From NCBI GenBank assembly GCA_020632075.1, contig JACKGH010000002.1, positions 11,454 to 75,453 on the forward strand: a DNA stretch of 64,000 bases. Reading direction: 5' to 3'. The notes beneath the pieces are model-generated. The model was not told the DNA's origin. It saw nothing but the letters and a program-made list of their open reading frames with translations, and did no database searches. Each line of letters opens with the position of its first letter. The stretch's first letter is position 1. This document shows, piece after piece, positions 14,111 to 39,753 of this stretch. Position numbers and translations under genes: made by a program. This stretch comes from Candidatus Nomurabacteria bacterium. GTDB lineage: Bacteria > Patescibacteriota > Minisyncoccia > Phycocordibacterales > UBA918.

Positions 14111-15310
14111 GTGTCTTTTTCGTATAGTGCTTTTATGTTGATATTGTCGATCGAAACATCATGTGACGAAACCGCAGTCAGCCTCGTCGAGGCCCGCGGT
14201 GATTTTCCGCACGCAACCTACGAAGTGCTTGGTGATGCACTCTGGAGCCAGATCGATGTTCATCGTGAGTACGGCGGCGTGTTCCCCGCTCTCGCGAAGC
14301 GGGAACACGCCGCCACGATCGTACCCATGCTCGAAAAAGCGATCAAGGAATCCGGGCTGGCAGCTCATGAGTACACACCTGGACTTGATCAAGAGACCGA
14401 GGCAAAAGTGCGCGAACTGTTAAATCGTGAGCACGGTCTCGCCGATCAATTACTCACCTTCCACCGAGAACATGGTTCGTTTCCGATTCATCTGATCGCT
14501 GTCACGAGTGGACCGGGGCTCGAGCCAGCCTTATGGGTGGGTGTGAATTTTGCCAAAGCGCTCGCACTTTTGTGGGACACACCGATCATCCCAACCAACC
14601 ACATGGAAGGTCATGTGCTGGCCAGCATTTATGATGCCGATCGAGACAATCAACTTTCAGATATTTCTTTCCCCGCCATTTCGCTCCTGATCTCTGGTGG
14701 ACACACTGAGCTCATCCTTATGAAGAACTGGGGTCAGTATGAAAAGATCGGACAGACTCGAGACGATGCGGTCGGTGAGGCGTTTGATAAAGTCGCACGC
14801 TTAGTGGGAATCCCATACCCCGGCGGGCCAGAGATCTCACGGCTGGCAGCAGAGGCCCGAAAACGAAAACTCCCTGCCTTTACAGAACTCCCGACACCAA
14901 TGCTCCACTCCGGCGATCTCGACTTTTCGTTTTCGGGCCTCAAGACCGCGGTACGTTATGCAGTACAAGACCGCACCATGACTCAAGATGAAATCGCTGC
15001 ACTCGCTCGGGATTTTGAAGATGCGGTTGCTACAGTACTCGTGAAAAAGACCTGTGATGCACTGGAGGAGTATGGCGCACAAACTCTGATCGTCGGTGGT
15101 GGTGTAAGCGCCAATCAATACATCAAACGAACGATGGAAGCCAAACTACTCACTGACCTACCAGATGTCACCTGTTACTTCCCGCCGCCAGGACTCTCAA
15201 CCGACAACAGCATCATGATCGCCCTTGCGGGCCATGCCAAAGCATCAGGAGCAATCGCACCAAACGCGACAGATGTGATCAGAGCTGATGGAAATAAGAG
15301 TTTAGCATAA
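14111..15310 (+). CDS. tsaD: tRNA N6-adenosine threonylcarbamoyltransferase TsaD (Kae1/YgjD family)
   Basis: ILSIETSCDETAVSLV start, HMEGH and GG.SAN motifs. The terminator GGCGGCCGGAGC...GCTCCGGCCGCC lies at 15319-15357. Confidence 0.9.
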   Translation: MSFSYSAFMLILSIETSCDETAVSLVEARGDFPHATYEVLGDALWSQIDVHREYGGVFPALAKREHAATIVPMLEKAIKESGLAAHEYTPGLDQETEAKVRELLNREHGLADQLLTFHREHGSFPIHLIAVTSGPGLEPALWVGVNFAKALALLWDTPIIPTNHMEGHVLASIYDADRDNQLSDISFPAISLLISGGHTELILMKNWGQYEKIGQTRDDAVGEAFDKVARLVGIPYPGGPEISRLAAEARKRKLPAFTELPTPMLHSGDLDFSFSGLKTAVRYAVQDRTMTQDEIAALARDFEDAVATVLVKKTCDALEEYGAQTLIVGGGVSANQYIKRTMEAKLLTDLPDVTCYFPPPGLSTDNSIMIALAGHAKASGAIAPNATDVIRADGNKSLA

Positions 15311-15361
15311 ATACAAAAGGCGGCCGGAGCTTTCTTTGCTCCGGCCGCCTTTGTATGAAAA

Positions 15362-15913
15362 CTAAATCTTTACCATACCTTCCCGCAATACCTCCACCCC
15401 ACCCCCCACACACCGCACTACCGTAGAAGCCTGCCCTTCTCGAACTCCACCATCGATCACTTTCGTGATCATGTGTGCCCGCTCGCCAAACTGCGCAAGT
15501 ATCTCAGCGGGCGATGCTGCCGTCGGCTCACCATGGACATTCGCACTTGTGCAGGTAAGCGGCACACCATCACTTTCTTTCATGTACTCAGCGATCAATT
15601 GCTGTGCGAGCGAATCAGATGAGATGCGGAAACTCACTGTGTCATCGGCGGCGCGGCAGTACACTGGCACCACGTCACTCGCCGCAAGCACCAACGTCAG
15701 TGGCCCCGGCAAATACCGCTCTACCAGCTGCCGCGCCGCCTCCGTCACCACCCCCAGCCGCTCAATATCACCAAGATCACGCACCAACCAACTCGCGGTT
15801 TGTGCGGTTTCTCTCGCCTTAAGTACACACAAATGCTCCCACGCAGCTTGATCAAATGCGTTGACTCCAAGCCCGTAAATAGTCTCAGTTGGGTATAGAA
15901 TTATCTCTGTCAT
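15362..15913 (-). CDS. tsaC: L-threonylcarbamoyladenylate synthase (YrdC/Sua5 domain, TsaC)
   Basis: YPTETIYGLGVNAFDQAA and the ...TSAN motif. Start refined to the internal ATG (MTEIILYPTE) because the ORF-track TTG extension runs into a 16-bp palindrome. Confidence 0.8.
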   Translation of the reverse strand: MTEIILYPTETIYGLGVNAFDQAAWEHLCVLKARETAQTASWLVRDLGDIERLGVVTEAARQLVERYLPGPLTLVLAASDVVPVYCRAADDTVSFRISSDSLAQQLIAEYMKESDGVPLTCTSANVHGEPTAASPAEILAQFGERAHMITKVIDGGVREGQASTVVRCVGGGVEVLREGMVKI

Positions 15914-16216
15914 GTGTTCGCAGTATACAACCAATACACGCAAGGGGTAACCCTTGCGTGTATTGGTAAAAAAGTATATAAAAGCACCAGCTCGCGGCCA
16001 TGGCCGCCCCCTCGTTCAAACTACCCACAGTGGATCAGCGAACCTTCACCCGATCATTCGATCCGGGTGTTTTCCCCAGGTACGCTGATCCACTGTGTGC
16101 GGTTTGGTTCGGTTCTCTGACCACTGATTGTTAGTTCTACTTGCTACGTATCATACCTCATTTTTCCACAACCCTCGGTTGACAAAATTTTTTTGTGTAT
16201 CTGACTATGCTGTTTT

Positions 16217-16245
16217 TTTGACAGTTGCCAAGACAGGTATATCAT
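16217..16245 (+). promoter_or_regulatory. Sigma-70-like promoter
   Basis: TTGACA-16-TATCAT, with a second TTGACA at 16178. Confidence 0.45.
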
Positions 16246-16360
16246 TGTAAGTAACAAGTGATACTTGGAGGGGAAACCAAGTCGACTCGCTTCATGTGTG
16301 TGGCTTATGTGTGTTTCCATTCAAACTGCATATGTTTTCTCAGCCAATACCAGCTGTCTT

Positions 16361-16390
16361 CCTGCGTGCCAACGCGGGTTTTTGTTTTCT
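16361..16390 (+). terminator. Intrinsic terminator inside the long leader upstream of the surface-protein operon
   Basis: CCTGCGTgccaACGCGGGtttttgtttt: a 7-bp stem with a G-U pair, then a T-run. Confidence 0.5.
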
Positions 16391-16579
16391 CATTTTTTCT
16401 TCTCGTTTTAAAAACATGACCTGTACCGTTCACGGATCAGAACAGACCTCTATCCGTTCCCGTCTGTGAACAGTACCGAACGAGTTTGTACCGTTCACAG
16501 ATCGACCTGTTTCTTCGTGGGATGTAGAGAAGAAAATTGGCCGAGCATCATTAAAAGGAGGTAATACGCAAATATAAAT

Positions 16580-17365
16580 ATGACTAGAACAACTACTCGA
16601 GTGTTGTCTGTCGCCCTTGCTGCAGTAATGGCTTTGGCAACATTCTCACTTTATACGTTCCAGGCTGCTGCTTACGACAATCACCGTGGTGGTGACGACG
16701 GAGACAGCACCTCAGTATCAACCAACAACAACGCTACTGTTGTAAACAATGTAGACATTAGCGCAAAGACTGGTGGTAATGAAGCAGAAGGTGGAGACGG
16801 TGGTCGCGGTGGTGATGGTGGCGACGCAAGTCGTGGCACCGCAGGTGCTGGTGGCAATGGTGGTCGCGGTGGTGATGGTGGCACCATCACTACTGGCGTA
16901 GCTACTGCTCTCGGCTCGATCTACAACGATGTGAACTACACCAGCGTTACTGTTGAAGGTTGTGGCTGCGACGAGGAAGAGCCACTTCTCTCACGTTTCA
17001 TGTTCTTCGGCAATGACGAAGACGGAAACAAGATCCGCGTTTCAACTCACAACAACGCGATGGTAACCAACAGCCTCGACGTTGACGCCAAGACTGGCTA
17101 CAACGAGGTTGATGGTGGCGATGGAGGTAGCGGTGATGACGGAGGAAACGCTGGCGACCGACATGACCGTAGCAAGTACTCATGGAATCTCTGGTTCAAC
17201 TGGTTCAACAGTAGTACTGGGGGCGACGGCGGTAATGGTGGCGCTGGCGGACATGGCGGCACTATCCGCACCGGCGAGGCATACGCAGCTGGTGATGCAA
17301 CTAACCTTGTAAACACCACTGTAGTACGTGTACTTAATGGCGCTGAGGAGGCACCAGAGGTATAG
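16580..17365 (+). CDS. Secreted Gly/Asp-rich repeat protein
   Basis: Signal peptide MTRTTTRVLSVALAAVMALATFSLYTFQAAA. Two tandem modules NNNA.V.N..D..AKTG.NE..GGDGG followed by GGxGGDGG tracts. The module is shared with the repeats of the 970-aa protein downstream. Confidence 0.7.
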   Translation: MTRTTTRVLSVALAAVMALATFSLYTFQAAAYDNHRGGDDGDSTSVSTNNNATVVNNVDISAKTGGNEAEGGDGGRGGDGGDASRGTAGAGGNGGRGGDGGTITTGVATALGSIYNDVNYTSVTVEGCGCDEEEPLLSRFMFFGNDEDGNKIRVSTHNNAMVTNSLDVDAKTGYNEVDGGDGGSGDDGGNAGDRHDRSKYSWNLWFNWFNSSTGGDGGNGGAGGHGGTIRTGEAYAAGDATNLVNTTVVRVLNGAEEAPEV

Positions 17366-17462
17366 CCGACCTCTGACCGTGGCAGGAGAGGACTTTGTCC
17401 TCCCCTCCACTCAGACCTGGTCCACCGCTTCAGGACAAGGTCTGAGCGAGGGAATCAATCAT

Positions 17463-17819
17463 ATGCTCAACACAAGATCACAGACACACTTCAGACAGTC
17501 ACTGCTTCTCGCAGCGATCTTGTTGTTTCCAATGACACTACAGGCAGAGACGGTCATCTCAAACTCTATCTCTGTTAGTGCCGACAACGGTACAAGCCAG
17601 GCCACAGTACAGACAGTGGTCAATGGTGAGACAATCGTAGACTGGACGGAAACAAGTAGTTCATCGATCTCGTATAGCGAGACGACGGTAGATCCTTCGA
17701 ACTCAATTACCAACACCACCGAAACAGCTGACGCGTCGGTCGAGCGCGCTCAGCTTGAGATGCTTCTCAAGCAATTACAAAAGCTAATTTCTCTATATGT
17801 CACGCTCACTACCCTTTAA
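17463..17819 (+). CDS. Small secreted Ser/Thr-rich protein
   Basis: Start refined to the ATG preceded by GAGGGA (MLNTRSQTHFRQSLLLAAILLFPMTLQAETV, a signal peptide). The longer ORF-track start lies inside the attenuator hairpins. Confidence 0.5.
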   Translation: MLNTRSQTHFRQSLLLAAILLFPMTLQAETVISNSISVSADNGTSQATVQTVVNGETIVDWTETSSSSISYSETTVDPSNSITNTTETADASVERAQLEMLLKQLQKLISLYVTLTTL

Positions 17820-20709
17820 TGCCGTGGCACTATACACGGCCAGTCTGCTACTCATTGGATCTCTGTTCTTGCAGGCTATCTTCCCTACCATTGCGTACGC
17901 AGTTGAAGACACTGAAACGACTGAAGCTCCAGCCGCAGCAACCGAACCAGAAACTCAATCACAAACTGAGGAACCTCCTGCTGAGGAAGTCATCGTCGCA
18001 CCGGACGAACTCTCTGAAGAGACTCTTGAAGAACTTATTGCAGATGCTCCTGAGGGTGACAGTGAGGTCATAACTGGCGACGCAACCGCGGGGCTCGCAG
18101 TCACCTCAGAGGTGAACACCACCGAAGTCGAAGCTGCTTCAACAACAGCCAGTAGTACAGAAGCTACAGAACCAGAAACCCCCGCATTTTCGTTTGCAAC
18201 ACAGGATGAAAACGAAACAACCGTAAAGACAGAGAATACCGCCACGACAACCACCAACGCCACCACGTCAGCCGAAACTGGAGACAATCTGGTCTATAGC
18301 GGTTCTGCCAATATCGATACCGGAAACGCGCTCGCATATGCAGACATCCTCAATGTCGTGAACACCAATATCGTCAACTCCGACGGTCTCATCTCATTCA
18401 TCAACGACACCTTGGGCTACAACAATTTCGATCTGCGCAACGACTTTGAAATCGCCTTTGCTGACTTCGACACTGCACAAAGTACTAGCGCCTGCACCGA
18501 TTCCTGTAACACTGGATCGCAACTTTATTCAAACGCCAACACTGCTGACATAACTAATAACATCACCGTAGTCGCTGACACTGGCGGCAATGGTGCAGTT
18601 GGCAATGAAGCCACCATCACAACTGGCAATGCCTATGCTTCAGCCAATGTCATCAATGTCGCAAACACCAATATTTCAGACTCCCAGTATCTACTCCTGA
18701 TCTTCAATAATTTTGATGACTTTGCTGGTGACATTGTTCTACCTAACAGTTCGTTCTTCGACCAATACTTCACTAGCAATCCTGCACCAACGACGATCAA
18801 TGCAACCAACAACAACACCGCGTCTATCAATAACGACGTATCAGTCACCGCCAACACCGGCGACAATACTGCGATCGGTGACGAAGCAAACATCACGACT
18901 GGCGCGGGTGTAGCGAGCGGTGAAGTGACCAACCTGGTCAATCAAAACATCATTGGAGGTCGTTCGTTCAATATGCTGATCCGTGTCCATGGTGACTGGA
19001 CCGGTAGTATCGATGGACTACCTGAAGGTCTCACCTGGCGTGAGACTGAGCGAGGTATTGAGATCATTTCCACTTACGATACACCAGGTATTCCACTGAA
19101 TGCGGGTACCGTCTCAAACACTAACAACGCTTCAATCAATAACAACGTGCATGTCTTTGCACTGACAGGTGATAATGCAGCAGCAGGTAACACCGCCAGT
19201 ATCTCGACCGGTAACGCCTATGCTGACGCTTCGATTATGAACATTGCCAATACCAATATCATTGGTAGCAACTGGTCAAACTTGATCTTCAATATCTATG
19301 GAAACTGGAACGGCAATCTGAGCTTTGGCCAGACCGACCTCTGGCTTGGTGTCACCGCCACCTCTCCAGACGATCCGATCATGCCTGGTTCACTGGTGAC
19401 ATACACCTTCACTGTCTTCAACCGCGGGGATACGACCGCACCAAACGTGAACCTTGAAGGTCTTTTCGCTGGTGATAGTCTTGCTTTTAGCGAAGGAAGT
19501 CAACAAGCCTTGAGTAACGGAAACTCCAAGCAAACCTGGTCACTCGGGGACATTGGTCCAAAGGAAACAAGAGAATTCACACATGTCGCTCGAGTCTCAA
19601 GTGACATAGAACCTAACCTGGTCTCTGCCCTACCACTCACCAGTCGCGTGAGTAGCGATCGTACTGACGCCAATGATAGAGATAACGAGGAGGTAGTAAC
19701 GGTCTACGTAGGACGAAACCGCAATGAGTCTACCAATTCACGCTCAACCTTCCCGGCACACTTCGAGATCAACAAAACCGCATCGCGAGACATTGCACAG
19801 CCAGGGGATACGGTTGAATACACTGTTTCATTCTTCAACCGTGGTGGACCACTTTTTGACGCTCTCCTGGTCGATACGCTTGAAAATGAGGCTGGAGAGA
19901 TCATTTCGCAACAGTCATGGCCACTCGGTGAGATAAAGAACTGGGAGACGATCAATGTTTCCTATGAGATGGAATTTGACTCTGCTATGGCGACTGGCAC
20001 CTACACAAACTACGCGCAGCTGATCGGTTTCCAGGGCAGTCGCCGAGAAAGGAGCCAGACACCGTATGAGTCTGCAGTTGCGTCACACGAACTACACCTA
20101 GGGACCAAGCCAGCCGGAGAAGTCCTTGGGGTCAGTACTTCTCTGTGTGAACCATATCTCACCGAATATCTCCGCTATGGTGCACTGAATGACGCAGGAC
20201 AGGTCATGAAGCTGCAACAATTCCTAAACATGGAGCTCGATCGTGGCTTGCTGGTCTCTGGCTACTTCGACCTAGCAACCGAGCAAGCGGTGCGTGATTT
20301 CCAGATCATCCATCGCGATGAGGTTCTGACTCCATGGGGACTAGAACGTGACTCAGGGTATGTCTACTACACCACTCAAAAGAAGATCAACGACATGATG
20401 TGTGCTGGCATGGCTATATTCCCGCTCGCTCCAGACCAACAGCAAGAGATCGAATCATTCAAAAGCCGAGTACAAGCAGATCGTGCACGCTTCTCATTCA
20501 ATACAGGCACCGGCACACCAGCCAAACCAGAGGAGGTCACGCCGCCTGCAGCAGCTTTACCGCCATCACGTGAAGCAGACATAGTCACTGAAGAAGTGGT
20601 GACTCCAAGCAATCCACCAGCAGATCCACCGCCACCAACCAATCCTTGGAGTACTATGCAGTCATGGTGGCAGTCGCTGAACACTTCAAGACTCATGTCG
20701 ATGCGATAG
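17797..20709 (+). CDS. Large cell-surface protein: signal peptide, acidic Thr-rich region, four ~40-aa N..V.A.TG.N.A.GN.A.I.TGNAYA...N.ANTNI repeats, two DUF11-type domains, a peptidoglycan-binding domain and a Pro-rich tail
   Basis: The repeats begin at NNITVVADTGGNGAVGNEATITTGNAYASANVINVANTNI and occur four times. The DUF11-like segments are LVTYTFTVFNRGDTTAPNVNLEG... and QPGDTVEYTVSFFNRGGPLFDALLVDTLENE.... The PG_binding_1-like segment is LTEYLRYGALNDAGQVMKLQQFLN...GYFDLATEQAVRDFQ. Confidence 0.8.
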   Translation: MSRSLPFNAVALYTASLLLIGSLFLQAIFPTIAYAVEDTETTEAPAAATEPETQSQTEEPPAEEVIVAPDELSEETLEELIADAPEGDSEVITGDATAGLAVTSEVNTTEVEAASTTASSTEATEPETPAFSFATQDENETTVKTENTATTTTNATTSAETGDNLVYSGSANIDTGNALAYADILNVVNTNIVNSDGLISFINDTLGYNNFDLRNDFEIAFADFDTAQSTSACTDSCNTGSQLYSNANTADITNNITVVADTGGNGAVGNEATITTGNAYASANVINVANTNISDSQYLLLIFNNFDDFAGDIVLPNSSFFDQYFTSNPAPTTINATNNNTASINNDVSVTANTGDNTAIGDEANITTGAGVASGEVTNLVNQNIIGGRSFNMLIRVHGDWTGSIDGLPEGLTWRETERGIEIISTYDTPGIPLNAGTVSNTNNASINNNVHVFALTGDNAAAGNTASISTGNAYADASIMNIANTNIIGSNWSNLIFNIYGNWNGNLSFGQTDLWLGVTATSPDDPIMPGSLVTYTFTVFNRGDTTAPNVNLEGLFAGDSLAFSEGSQQALSNGNSKQTWSLGDIGPKETREFTHVARVSSDIEPNLVSALPLTSRVSSDRTDANDRDNEEVVTVYVGRNRNESTNSRSTFPAHFEINKTASRDIAQPGDTVEYTVSFFNRGGPLFDALLVDTLENEAGEIISQQSWPLGEIKNWETINVSYEMEFDSAMATGTYTNYAQLIGFQGSRRERSQTPYESAVASHELHLGTKPAGEVLGVSTSLCEPYLTEYLRYGALNDAGQVMKLQQFLNMELDRGLLVSGYFDLATEQAVRDFQIIHRDEVLTPWGLERDSGYVYYTTQKKINDMMCAGMAIFPLAPDQQQEIESFKSRVQADRARFSFNTGTGTPAKPEEVTPPAAALPPSREADIVTEEVVTPSNPPADPPPPTNPWSTMQSWWQSLNTSRLMSMR

Positions 20710-20776
20710 AAGAGCAGTCCACCGCAAGACCGCCGCGCGCCCAAAGGGCGCGCGGCGGTTTGCTACAATACTCATA

Positions 20777-21481
20777 ATGGAAGCGACTAATTTCGCCATA
20801 GCATTCCTGGCTGGTCTGGTGCCGGCTCTTTTTTGGGTGTGGTTTTGGTTACGCGAAGACAGTCGTAAACCCGAACCTTACTTCTTGATCGCGATCGCGT
20901 TTATCGCTGGCATGGCTGTTGTACCAGTTACGCTACCACTGCAAAAACTTGCCCTCGATCTATACAGCGGTGGGAATGTAGTCTTAGTGTGGGTCGTTGT
21001 TGAAGAGTTACTAAAATACGCCTTTGCACTCGCACTCATCTTCTGGAATCGAGAGGTCGACGAGCCGATCGACATGATCATTTACATGATCATGGTTGCC
21101 CTCGGCTTCTCAGCTCTTGAAAACGCTCTCTTTATCTTCAACCCACTCGCGGCGGGTGAATACTTCAGCTCTGCCGTTACTGGTGGATTCAGATTCCTTG
21201 GCGCTACACTGCTACATGTACTCGCATCTGGCACCGTGGGTGTGTTCTTGGCCCTCTCCTATTACCGCTCACAGACCACTCAAATACTCATGGGAACCTT
21301 TGGGTTGTTCATTGCTATTGTATTGCACTACCTTTTCAACAAATCTATAATAGAAACAAGTGGAGAGAAGGTTCTCGCGATCTTCCTCTTCGTTTGGATG
21401 GGCATCATCCTGCTGTTTCTTCTGTTTGAAAAAGTTAAGCTCCTTGAGCGCAACCATAATTTGCATCAAAAATTATCATGA
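20777..21481 (+). CDS. PrsW-family intramembrane metalloprotease
   Basis: EELLKYA, GFSALENALF and HVLASG motifs in a polytopic membrane protein. The terminator CGCGCGCCCaaagGGCGCGCG lies just upstream at 20735-20763. Confidence 0.75.
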   Translation: MEATNFAIAFLAGLVPALFWVWFWLREDSRKPEPYFLIAIAFIAGMAVVPVTLPLQKLALDLYSGGNVVLVWVVVEELLKYAFALALIFWNREVDEPIDMIIYMIMVALGFSALENALFIFNPLAAGEYFSSAVTGGFRFLGATLLHVLASGTVGVFLALSYYRSQTTQILMGTFGLFIAIVLHYLFNKSIIETSGEKVLAIFLFVWMGIILLFLLFEKVKLLERNHNLHQKLS

Positions 21482-21984
21482 AAAAACCTTCATTCTTAGA
21501 GCGCCTCACCGGCAATCAATCTGATGAATACGATATCCTCGATGAGGATCGTGAGTACGACGACACCGATGAACTTGCTGTTGAAGAGGACGACTACAAG
21601 GACGAAGAATGGGAAGAAGAAACAAGCAGCGCTCCACAACAGGACGGCGAGCTTCCGGTTGATATGTATCAAACTGATGATGCAATTATCATTCGTGCGC
21701 TCGTTGCCGGCGTGAGTCCAAACGAACTCGACATCTCTATTACGCGCGACATGGTGACTGTCCGTGGTGTCCGCGAAGAATACCAAGAAGCACACGACGA
21801 CGGCTACTTCCACCGCGAACTCTTCTGGGGTAGCTTCTCACGCACCCTACTCCTTCCTGAGGAAGTCGCGATCGATGAGGCAGAAGCACAAGAAAAACAC
21901 GGCCTCCTTGAGATCAGACTACCAAAGCTTGATAAGCACCGCAGTACTCAACTAAAGGTTCGCACCAACGCTGCTCATAAGTAA
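21478..21984 (+). CDS. Hsp20/alpha-crystallin family small heat-shock protein
   Basis: Acidic N-terminus, then the ACD core (VDMYQTDDAIIIRALVAGVSPNELDISITRDMVTVRGVRE...LEIRLPK). Overlaps the PrsW stop (ATGA). A terminator follows at 21988-22022. Confidence 0.9.
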   Translation: MKKPSFLERLTGNQSDEYDILDEDREYDDTDELAVEEDDYKDEEWEEETSSAPQQDGELPVDMYQTDDAIIIRALVAGVSPNELDISITRDMVTVRGVREEYQEAHDDGYFHRELFWGSFSRTLLLPEEVAIDEAEAQEKHGLLEIRLPKLDKHRSTQLKVRTNAAHK

Positions 21985-31488: not shown

Positions 31489-31522
31489 CACACCAAAAAA
31501 ACCCCCGAAGGGGTGTTTTTGT
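31489..31522. terminator. Bidirectional terminator
   Basis: aaaaaaACCCCcgaaGGGGTgtttttgt. Confidence 0.65.
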
Positions 31523-31915
31523 ACACATAAGCCGGATTCTGTCGAGCGAAGCTCGGATGATCATTTACCTAGGATGCTTGTTACCAAACACCTCTTGCGA
31601 CTCTCCTAGCACCACTTTTGCAACCACTGTATTGTAGACGCAAAAGTGGTGCTAGGCACGGTCTTGCACGCGAGTAAGGATTTAGCCGTTTCACTCACCT
31701 GGTCTCCCAAGTGACTATCCCCGAGGGGATCCCGTTCCTTTCAGTCAGGGCGTCTCTGCTCGCACCTCTCGGTCGGATCGCGGGCAAAATGAAGGACTCG
31801 TCCTTCATTTTGCCCGCGATCCGCCGCGACGGGTGTTACCCGCTACTCTGCTCCACAACGAGCTGTGGGCGTGTCCGGACTTTCCTCCTCACAAAGTGAG
31901 GCGATCATCGTGCGG
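31520..31915 (-). ncRNA. rnpB: RNase P RNA, bacterial type A
   Basis: The minus strand reads GAGGAGGAAAGTCCGGAC (P4 5' strand) ... GTGAAACGGC ... ACAGAATCCGGCTTATG (P4 3' strand). A short P3 hairpin CCTCACtttgTGAGG, and P2 as GATGATCG/TGATCATC. The ends are approximate. Confidence 0.75.
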
Positions 31916-31949
31916 AAATATTATGCAATAATACTTAAAAATAAGCAAC

Positions 31950-38193: not shown

Positions 38194-38302
38194 TTAGACC
38201 CTCCTTACATAATTGCCTATAGAAATGGCGTTAAAATACAACTTATTCAGAATGAATAATGACATTTTTTTATTAATGTGTCAATATAATCCACCAAACT
38301 AT

Positions 38303-38336
38303 TGACAACGACCATGAGTAATGTATTATGTACGCA
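38303..38336 (+). promoter_or_regulatory. Sigma-70 promoter of the helicase gene
   Basis: TTGACA-16-TATTAT, followed by a ~130-nt structured leader. Confidence 0.5.
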
Positions 38337-38469: not shown

Positions 38470-39753
38470 ATGCCAACTCAAACTACGCGACGGTCAAGCG
38501 GCCGGCGCACACACGCTGGTTCAGGACGACCTGGATCATCATTTACTCGTAATCGTCGTGGCAACAACCGACGCCATGGTGGAGTCAGTCGCTCTTCTGC
38601 TGGACGAAACCGCAGCGGCAGCCGCTCAGGCGGTGGCCGTAAGCAACCAACGTTCGACCCATCACAATTCATCAACCACAATCCGGTCAATGTGACCGAA
38701 GAGGTGTACGTACCAAAGCACAATTTTGGTGATTTTGGGCTGCATCCACGGATCGTTGGTGCGATCAAAGACATGAAGATCGAGTCACCTTCGCCGATCC
38801 AGGACCAAGTGATCCCACTTATCCTTGATGGCAATGATGTGATCGGTCTCGCTGAAACCGGTACCGGAAAGACTGCTGCGTTTCTCTTGCCGCTCATCCA
38901 AAAGACATTGACGGCGAAGAATCAGCAGACCCTTATCCTCTGCCCTACTCGTGAACTCGCCCTTCAGGTGAAGGCTGAGTTTGTAAAGTTTGGTGGCAAC
39001 TTCAAGCTCTGGGCGACTTGTCTCGTGGGAGGAACCAATATCAACCCACAGATCCGTTCACTGAAGCGTTTCCAACACTTCATCATTGGTACACCCGGGC
39101 GTGTGCTCGACCTTATTGATCGCGGCGACCTCAAGACCGACAAGATCAACAACATCGTCCTCGATGAAGCTGACCGTATGCTCGACATGGGATTCATCCA
39201 TGACATGCGCAAGATCTTGAGTCACGTGACCAATGATCGACAAACTCTCTTTTTCTCAGCTACCATGACCAAAGAGGCTGAAGCGCTAGTGAATGATTTT
39301 ATGATCAAGCCAGTCACTGTCTCAGTGAAGAAAAAAGAAACTGCAAACAGCATCAAACAAGACGTGGTGCCGTTTGATCACGCTCATAAGTTCGATACGT
39401 TGCTTGCACTCCTTGCAAAGGACGAACTCAAGCGCGTCATCATCTTCGGTGCCATGAAGCATAGTGTAGAAAAGCTCTCTAAGGAGCTTTGCAAGCACGG
39501 CATCAAGGCTGAATCGATCCATGGCAACAAGAGTCATGGCCAGCGCCAGAATTCACTCAAGACATTCAAGAGCGGTAATGCTCGTGTGCTCGTCGCCACT
39601 GACGTGGCCGCGCGCGGTATTCATGTCGACAATGTGTCACACGTGATCAACTACGATCTCCCGAACACCTTCGAAGACTACGTACACCGTATTGGTCGTA
39701 CTGGTCGCGGAACCATGCGTGGTGAGGCACTCACTTTTGTGCCAAAGCACTAA
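38470..39753 (+). CDS. DEAD-box ATP-dependent RNA helicase with an N-terminal Arg/Gly-rich extension
   Basis: Q motif, GTGKTAAF, PTRELA, DEAD, SAT and HRIGRTGR. The first ~70 residues are an RGG/RSS-rich low-complexity tract. Confidence 0.9.
   Translation: MPTQTTRRSSGRRTHAGSGRPGSSFTRNRRGNNRRHGGVSRSSAGRNRSGSRSGGGRKQPTFDPSQFINHNPVNVTEEVYVPKHNFGDFGLHPRIVGAIKDMKIESPSPIQDQVIPLILDGNDVIGLAETGTGKTAAFLLPLIQKTLTAKNQQTLILCPTRELALQVKAEFVKFGGNFKLWATCLVGGTNINPQIRSLKRFQHFIIGTPGRVLDLIDRGDLKTDKINNIVLDEADRMLDMGFIHDMRKILSHVTNDRQTLFFSATMTKEAEALVNDFMIKPVTVSVKKKETANSIKQDVVPFDHAHKFDTLLALLAKDELKRVIIFGAMKHSVEKLSKELCKHGIKAESIHGNKSHGQRQNSLKTFKSGNARVLVATDVAARGIHVDNVSHVINYDLPNTFEDYVHRIGRTGRGTMRGEALTFVPKH

Follow-up and report, generated by a model that had tools for sequence, protein, structure and literature searches.

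The 64,000-nucleotide stretch of DNA from a Candidatus Nomurabacteria bacterium analysed here ('the window') contains a 666-bp gap that separates tsaC (15362-15913, minus strand) from the gene for a 261-aa protein (16580-17365), the first of the three genes of the regulated operon considered below (16580-20709, plus strand, as are all the elements described unless otherwise stated). The 261-aa protein is glycine-rich with a signal-peptide-like N-terminus, and is without a match in Pfam or the Protein Data Bank (PDB). A small open reading frame (ORF) comes next and then a protein of 970 aa, which has a CLIPPER/DUF11 domain and matches peptidoglycan (PG)-binding weakly, and 'surface operon' is a fair description of the three-gene block. 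A first-pass annotation, made from the letters alone, had treated the gap as a single 640-bp leader holding a consensus promoter and an intrinsic terminator, and had offered two readings of the segment that they enclose: a riboswitch- or attenuator-controlled leader of the surface operon, or an independent small RNA (sRNA). What stands of this is an operon leader with a terminator inside its 5' untranslated region (UTR); the riboswitch does not stand and the independent sRNA is disfavoured. The gap also holds a second, upstream unit whose long hairpin (LH) has an unpaired C-rich bulge complementary to the G-rich loop of a hairpin, hp5, near the predicted 5' end of the leader, and a contact between the two RNAs is likely on comparative grounds.

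Ten contigs of the same species share the intergenic region and carry no comparative information (nine are 100% identical and L008 differs by one base, a range of 99.85-100%). The route to orthologous leaders via tsaC synteny was tried and rejected, none of 160 genome and metagenome loci being similar in the intergenic region. Homologues of the 261-aa protein, at 47-71% identity, yielded six more species, each with a gap of ~560-680 bp 5' of the homologue gene (in one the contig ends after 568 bp of it), and a covariance model added two genomes, one partial (L102) and one complete (L108). The main comparison is therefore of eight species, the window plus seven other Paceibacteria/'Kaiserbacteria' genomes with a full leader; L102, as a ninth genome, contributes the upstream half only, its locus stopping at the main promoter. 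Wherever a contig reaches far enough, the same three operon genes come after the leader, and in eight genomes leader and operon stay together as the upstream gene varies (tsaC, TsaD, a sortase or a TSP_3 protein), so that the non-coding region travels with the operon. Five genomes have the block beside TsaD and two have it beside sortase or TSP_3 genes, and from this variable neighbour it follows that the block relocates as a unit. Relatives with 72-74% TsaC identity have the gene order MYG1-TsaD-TsaC-aminoacyl-tRNA synthetase (aaRS)-PrsW-HSP20; in the window leader and operon are located between TsaC and PrsW (15362-21984 region), a slot filled in those relatives (L170-L175) by a 739-768-aa class I aaRS. 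In one of the species with the operon (L180) the synthetase gene comes after it. No second copy of any intergenic element is present within the 64-kb window.

The promoter claimed earlier, TTGACA-16-TATCAT, is present and begins at 16218, one nucleotide from where it had been placed. This promoter, P2 (16218-16245), matches consensus at 11 of 12 positions and has GG[T/A][A/G] immediately before its -10. The claimed terminator hairpin and T-run (given as 16361-16390) are likewise confirmed, at 16361-16388: the 7-bp stem CCTGCGT/ACGCGGG (16361-16378; -10.8 kcal/mol) with loop GCCA is followed by TTTTTGTTTT up to 16388, or stem plus UUUUUGUUUU, a weak intrinsic terminator here termed T2. It lies 190 nt before the ATG at 16580, as had been stated. 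Judged by the local sequence neither is significant, since 15000-17500 has three promoter-like sites against 2.2 expected from shuffles and three terminator-like sites against 2.1 expected. Over the whole 64 kb, both strands considered, matches of at least 11/12 to the promoter consensus number two, including P2, and shuffles give 0.55 +/- 0.77. The other, TTGACA-16-TATTAT at 38302-38329, is ~140 nt 5' of a DEAD-box helicase ORF (38470-39753), because of which the sigma70 consensus appears to be used by this organism; its position implies that the helicase gene also has a long 5' UTR.

It is conservation that settles the matter. In the full-leader species the -35 is TTGACA, except for one TGTACA, and the -10 is TAnnAT; the offset from the -35 to the GG preceding the -10 is 18 nt in eight species, and the spacer sequences drift. 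P2 thus has hexamers near TTGACA/TATAAT and a spacer within the 16-18 nt looked for, with both hexamers and spacing kept in relatives, as is expected of a sigma70-type promoter. At T2 the eight species have a GC-rich stem of 5-7 bp (-5.6 to -10.8 kcal/mol) with zero gap to a run of 5-8 U residues. An alignment of the leader for compensatory changes, of the kind the first-pass annotation had proposed, finds them: 95.8% of cells are paired, three of six pairs have changed on both sides, none of 500 shuffles is equal and slid controls reach 23-46%. L108 has an unrelated stem sequence at the T2 position. Five species keep U-G pairs in the stem, and these, with the U-run, fit the plus strand only. 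Stem with abutting U-run, and pairing kept by compensatory change, are what an intrinsic terminator should have. Sequence alone barely beats chance; as relatives conserve both elements, the promoter-terminator pair is, by this comparative evidence, confirmed as real.

The extra TTGACA that had been noted also exists, at 16179-16184 rather than from 16178. It is ~40 bp 5' of the P2 -35 and recurs in L177, L180, L182 and L108. In the first three a T[G/A]TATC[T/G] follows it after 13-15 nt (16200-16206 in the window), a spacing too short for a sigma70 -10; in L108 the distance is 17 nt and the sequence there is unrelated. The extra box could represent a second promoter, or else a site for an activator or an element of the UP kind.

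What lies beyond T2 bears on whether the terminator is inside the leader or ends a separate transcript. The alignment there has four helices: the A:B hairpin with its inner stem, the hairpin at 16502-16544, and two small ones around the Shine-Dalgarno (SD) sequence. In A:B (16422-16476) box A (16422-16438) pairs with box B (16463-16476) around an inner co-varying stem that switches GC/UA/AU, and its loop holds ACCUCUA; seven of 21 pairs have changed on both sides. Box A' (16487-16503) is a direct repeat of box A and offers box B an alternative pairing. Pairing of B with A or A' is kept in all species, with changes that are one-sided, to G-U, and such an arrangement within the 5' UTR has the look of a switch, or else of a protein-binding site that is repeated. 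In the H3 hairpin (16502-16544; UCGACCUGUUUCUU...GAAGAAAAUUGGCCGA) six of 13 pairs have changed on both sides and 90.8% are paired. The SD hairpin (16550-16582; AUUAAA-AGGA-GGUAAU), which holds the SD GGAGG (16557-16561) and reaches the start codon at 16580, is nearly invariant in sequence and so has no countable covariation. For the downstream leader in total 86.2% of cells are paired and 17 pairs have changed on both sides, equalled by none of 500 shuffles. Several of its G-U pairs would be A-C on the opposite strand and so fit the plus strand only, and this part of the leader must be transcribed. In the 33-48 nt between the T2 U-run and box A there is no promoter-like motif conserved across the species. 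With a co-varying structured RNA downstream and no conserved promoter in between, T2 lies inside the 5' UTR. The simplest reading, which partly supports the earlier one, is then of read-through from the promoter at 16218, with T2 as an internal attenuator of a 5' UTR of ~330 nt.

Two observations on this part of the leader may be added. L108 (950-1000, reverse strand) keeps every leader element and yet has no SD before its ATG. An anti-SD role for the A:B loop (ACCUCYA) was considered and rejected, the loop being the top partner of the SD in only two of seven species and L108 lacking an SD.

Near the predicted 5' end of the P2 transcript is hp5 (16263-16282), an Alifold consensus hairpin with a 6-bp stem, ACUUGG/CCAAGU, and loop AGGGGAAA. 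It folds in the eight species at -5.1 to -6.6 kcal/mol, with a 6-bp stem and a loop of 8-10 nt containing GGGG[A/G][A/C] in those with a full leader. The distance from the -10 to hp5 is 9-11 nt in six species and 17-18 nt in two, and in the six hp5 would begin at about +2 to +5 of the predicted transcript. The motif is present once in the window and, among 188 loci (~0.8 Mb of related loci), only in these leaders. The spacer that connects it to T2 (16283-16360; 70-85 nt among species) is without consensus pairs, has little sequence conservation, and is C-rich and G-poor (3-6 G per ~50 nt in five species).

This leader does not take in the first 300 bp of the gap. A single 640-bp leader was a mistaken assumption, for a separate upstream unit with a conserved promoter and a 90-nt hairpin followed by a U-run lies inside. 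Its promoter, P_up (15954-15982), has a -35 TTGCGT (15954-15959), a 17-nt spacer and a -10 TATAAA (15977-15982), and the pattern TTGCnn-16/17-TA[T/A]AAn recurs in all eight species that reach that far, with differing spacers. A perfect 17-bp hairpin, ACCAATACACGCAAGGG/CCCTTGCGTGTATTGGT, occurs at 15930-15967, 16 nt 5' of the tsaC start codon (minus strand), and its 3' arm includes the P_up -35; it is not present in the other species, whose upstream genes differ, and tsaC has no visible SD. After P_up comes a small GC hairpin, T0 (15994-16007; GCGGCC-AT-GGCCGC), predicted at an equal position in seven of eight species, each with a different sequence, and followed by a U-run in most relatives, where it probably also terminates the upstream gene.

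Then follows LH (16017-16112), with a ~28-bp basal stem and a variable apical hairpin, the hairpin extending to 16106 and a U-rich run coming after it. Covariation in LH is strong, with 91.9% of cells paired and both sides changed in 17 of 28 pairs, which none of 500 shuffles equals (slid controls are 26-42% paired); Alifold also yields the hairpin, and the covariance model finds it in two further genomes. LH is proposed to be the body and terminator of an RNA of ~125 nt from P_up. On its 3' side the bulge (U)UUUCCCC is conserved and is unpaired in all single-sequence folds; in the window it is UGUUUUCCCC (16068-16077), a candidate contact site for the hp5 loop.

This bulge is complementary to the hp5 loop at 16270-16279, LH being ~200 nt upstream on the same strand. 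In the window UUUCCCC in LH faces GGGGAAA in hp5, and the partners change together elsewhere: UCCCCCG with CGGGGGA in L178, GUCCCCUUU with GAAGGGGGC in L182, UCCCCUAU with AUAGGGGA in L186, and UUCCCCC with GGGGGAA in L108. When the hp5 loop is matched against the whole leader, the bulge ranks first or second as its partner in six of seven species. The cognate duplexes of the eight species sum to -101.2 kcal/mol against -91.3 +/- 3.6 for the 40320 permutations of partners, of which 0.35% are as good; as a negative control, another C-rich loop, that of A:B, set against the hp5 loop gave 46%, with no cognate preference. Predicted duplexes are of about -11 to -18 kcal/mol on flank-extended segments and -8.6 to -15.1 kcal/mol on segments restricted to the loops. 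Perfect Watson-Crick pairs number 6-8, and with G-U there are 7-13 pairs; as the match lengthens only with G-U, RNA pairing rather than DNA inverted repeats is indicated.

The explanation that we favour, at even confidence for the whole of it, is that P2, as the main sigma70-type promoter, starts a ~330-nt 5' leader of the surface operon, that P2, hp5, spacer and T2 together open an attenuated leader, and that an RNA carrying LH contacts hp5. P_up would make the separate LH hairpin RNA of ~125 nt. Transcripts from P2 would either stop at T2, giving an RNA of ~130 nt, or run through into the operon, with T2 as an attenuator capping or gating expression. LH would 'kiss' hp5 on the nascent or finished P2 transcript, be it in trans or inside a rare long transcript begun at P_up, and change its fate in a way that may raise or lower operon expression, with 5'-end stability and/or efficiency of termination at T2 the likely effects. 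Unconstrained, the T2 stem has a probability of 0.91-0.99, and with the hp5 loop blocked 0.75-0.99, in seven species (L186 was unscorable from a coordinate offset). There is no thermodynamic antiterminator in the seven species scored, nor does blocking the loop affect T2. Any effect on termination would consequently have to be indirect, and candidate routes are polymerase pausing, loading of Rho on the C-rich spacer, and attack by RNase III or a 5'-exonuclease.

Several points weigh against this explanation. No structure joins hp5 to T2 through which a contact at hp5 would alter termination. T2, at -5.6 to -10.8 kcal/mol, is weak and may terminate little. The start, stop and read-through of P2 transcripts are all read from sequence. 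Upstream, the T0 hairpin and U-run after P_up in most species could stop synthesis of LH before it is reached, and in the window itself LH is followed by a poor U-run. As to the complementarity, its perfect Watson-Crick part is short (6-8 pairs), the long-range signal rests on about four to five independent lineages, and for L177 and L183 a shuffled bulge does at least as well. There is, too, an account at the level of DNA, as inverted repeats flanking P2, for the same complementarity, which we regard as quite improbable and return to below.

How does this compare with what has been worked out elsewhere? In attenuation of plasmids pT181 and pIP501 (and with RnaG/icsA) a small RNA kisses the loop of a hairpin in the 5' leader, and the terminator is ~100 nt downstream, before the coding region (PMC3753616; PMC2879508). 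The present leader, with its 5' hairpin, predicted short loop contact by an RNA and terminator ~100 nt on, is similar. However, LH is not antisense, being encoded ~200 nt upstream on the same strand with only 7-13 complementary bases, and there is no preemptor or antiterminator fold for binding to displace. By analogy this is the closest working model, yet two of its defining features fail here. Another likeness is to RNAs whose C-rich loops pair with G-rich targets, such as RsaE/RoxS, the sRNAs with a UCCC motif and the pairing of the icaR 3' UTR with its 5' UTR: LH presents an unpaired (U)UUCCCC on a stable hairpin, with GGGG/GGAGG in the leader as predicted target. But the target here is the loop of a 5'-end hairpin rather than a translated SD (L108 keeps the pair without having an SD), and the genes for the putative regulator and its target lie in tandem.

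The main rival dispenses with RNA-RNA regulation. It has a constitutive leader for high expression in which hp5 is a 5' stabiliser, either as a terminal hairpin or as a STAB-SD holding the 30S subunit, T2 is an unregulated leaky terminator or pause, and the complementarity of LH to hp5 is incidental or LH is an insulating terminator. We consider it unlikely, while giving it more weight than any other alternative. Hairpins at the 5' end stabilise the ompA and aprE mRNAs. In six species only a few nt separate hp5 from the predicted 5' end, its G-run being ~10-25 nt from the predicted start with the next AUG ~20 nt off, and the GGAGG-like runs in its loop can form duplexes of -6.4 to -11.1 kcal/mol with a canonical 16S 3' tail. 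A precedent is the STAB-SD of the long cry3A leader, a G-rich SD-like sequence near the 5' end that is not used for translation start (PMC4113751). Such leaders are long 5' UTRs of secreted or structural proteins with very high expression, and the present one resembles them in its length, in the kind of protein encoded and in the G-rich hairpin near the predicted 5' end; the weakness of T2 and the lack of a switch structure suit this account. In contrast to stabilisers, however, the G-rich loop co-varies with the upstream C-rich bulge instead of being fixed to the anti-SD, and for the loops of L178 (GGCGGGGG) and L186 (AUAGGGG) the LH bulge is a better match than the anti-SD. The preference for cognate partners would be unexpected were the complementarity incidental, an insulating terminator needs neither a conserved bulge sequence nor a conserved promoter of its own, and stabiliser leaders have no need of the conserved terminator found within this one.

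The independent sRNA proposed earlier would be a trans-acting RNA of ~130 nt from P2 to T2, with the operon transcribed from elsewhere or by incidental read-through. It is disfavoured, and we think it improbable. It would have its own strong promoter and its own terminator, as a free sRNA should, and the exposed G-rich loop of hp5 is conserved; the terminated leaders SreA and SreB of Listeria, which act in trans, are a precedent. A free sRNA should, however, be independent of its neighbours, and this one is always directly 5' of the same operon in the eight genomes although the gene on its other side changes. Apart from the hp5 loop it has no conserved single-stranded segment, the hp5 motif has no other copy in the window or the ~0.8 Mb of related loci, and the co-varying downstream leader would be left without any other conserved promoter.

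Could a ribosome be the agent? Attenuation coupled to translation, of the pyrBI type, would have a ribosome on the ORF from the AUG at 16294, in the spacer, cross T2 and block formation of the terminator hairpin; this we hold to be more doubtful still than the free sRNA. The flagged segment has two ORFs, from ATG 16294 (41 aa) and ATG 16332 (45 aa), neither with an SD, so that the weak 43-codon ORF lacking a ribosome-binding site reported in the first-pass annotation was nearly correct. In favour are the alignment of AUG 16294 in six of seven species, ~20 nt 3' of hp5, and ORFs of 19-41 codons that reach the T2 region in all seven, ending within it, just past it or 3 nt short of it. On the other side, none of the seven species has an SD at 5-10 nt from the aligned AUG, which is missing altogether from L177. 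The leader peptides are unconserved and their frame relative to T2 varies among species. Shuffled spacers remain open in 33-48% of cases and a second frame is also open in most species, so that stop-poor composition may well account for the ORFs.

Slightly less probable again is the DNA-level account mentioned above, a phase-variable invertible promoter in which the LH bulge and hp5 loop are the inverted repeats of a ~200-bp switch carrying P2, and their covariation is that of recombination sites. Invertible promoters control surface-protein genes in fimS, Clostridioides difficile cwpV and Campylobacter fetus sap, and for cwpV the OFF state is brought about by a leader terminator. Here also short inverted repeats surround the promoter of a surface operon and change together across species, and the first base of one contig, L181, is only 1-2 nt ahead of the hp5 G-run, so that an assembly break at a switch is conceivable. 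But unlike those of the known switches the perfect repeats are of 6-8 bp, below the ~9 bp that would be looked for, and their extension by G-U is meaningless for DNA. Both are in single-stranded parts of conserved hairpins, and inversion would wreck the strongly co-varying LH stem. Every assembled contig that spans both elements (eight species, many samples) has one orientation, and no recombinase gene is among the called operon neighbours in any locus, the search being of those neighbours and not of the rest of the genome. As to L181 itself, positions 1-10, from a second sample, start exactly at AAGGGGAAAC, the hp5 loop (compare L180 282-291). Chance could explain this start, as could an end derived from a transcript or a break in the assembly where a short inverted repeat lies; as an inversion breakpoint it is uninformative, the sequence being that of the normal orientation.

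Last, the reading of the stretch from P2 to T2 as a riboswitch that senses a ligand, or as an element akin to a T-box, is close to refuted. A 5' UTR with a promoter and, ~110 nt on, a terminator does have the classic layout. But there is no alternative antiterminator fold to compete with the terminator, only hp5 and T2 are conserved in the consensus structure between transcription start and terminator with the spacer variable, shuffles of the 143-nt segment fold as well as the segment does (z = -1.4), and the covariance-model scan that the first-pass annotation had suggested came back with nothing above noise from Rfam (15850-16650 at E<=10, the whole window, and six relatives at E<=1).

Some further observations concern the organism and the encoded proteins. 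Seen by eye, the motif NNxAxVxNxVxxxAxTGxNxAxG...ITTGxAxA...N.VN is repeated in both the 261-aa (16580-17365) and 970-aa (17797-20709) proteins. An identical copy of the 261-aa protein in the National Center for Biotechnology Information (NCBI) database is from Candidatus Kaiserbacteria bacterium (assembly GCA_020428695.1), and the relatives of TsaC carry the names Candidatus Pacebacteria or Paceibacterota. The RNase P RNA of the window (31512-31920, minus strand) reaches 101.5 bits where the gathering threshold is 100, and it has several large insertions; an RNase P RNA that barely passes and bears insertions is typical for a divergent lineage of the Candidate Phyla Radiation (CPR).

CPR bacteria, or Patescibacteria, are uncultured, tiny and often episymbiotic, and their surface proteins are the interface with the host. 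To our knowledge almost nothing has been established about how gene expression is controlled in them, and a search of the literature turned up no account of such regulatory RNAs from CPR bacteria. The larger conserved regulatory region is previously undescribed and is not in Rfam. It comprises two promoters, three elements of hairpin plus U-run, four or more helices that co-vary and a long-range complementarity that does so too, and these 600 bp of non-coding sequence have been kept while the first protein of the operon diverged to 47-71% identity, from which strong selection on control of the surface operon at the level of RNA follows. If the LH-hp5 contact is real, the region holds a compact regulatory pair, its covariance models would serve to find operon regulators in metagenomes, and its promoters and terminators would be a set for CPR genetics. 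More tentatively, and as a possibility that we rate well below the favoured explanation as a whole, the arrangement may be a two-RNA module specific to CPR in which LH is encoded in tandem 5' of its sole target and bulge-loop kissing gates a terminator that has no antiterminator. Were that so, it would be a mode of riboregulation not described in plasmid or chromosomal systems, and the first regulatory RNA pair to be defined in CPR.

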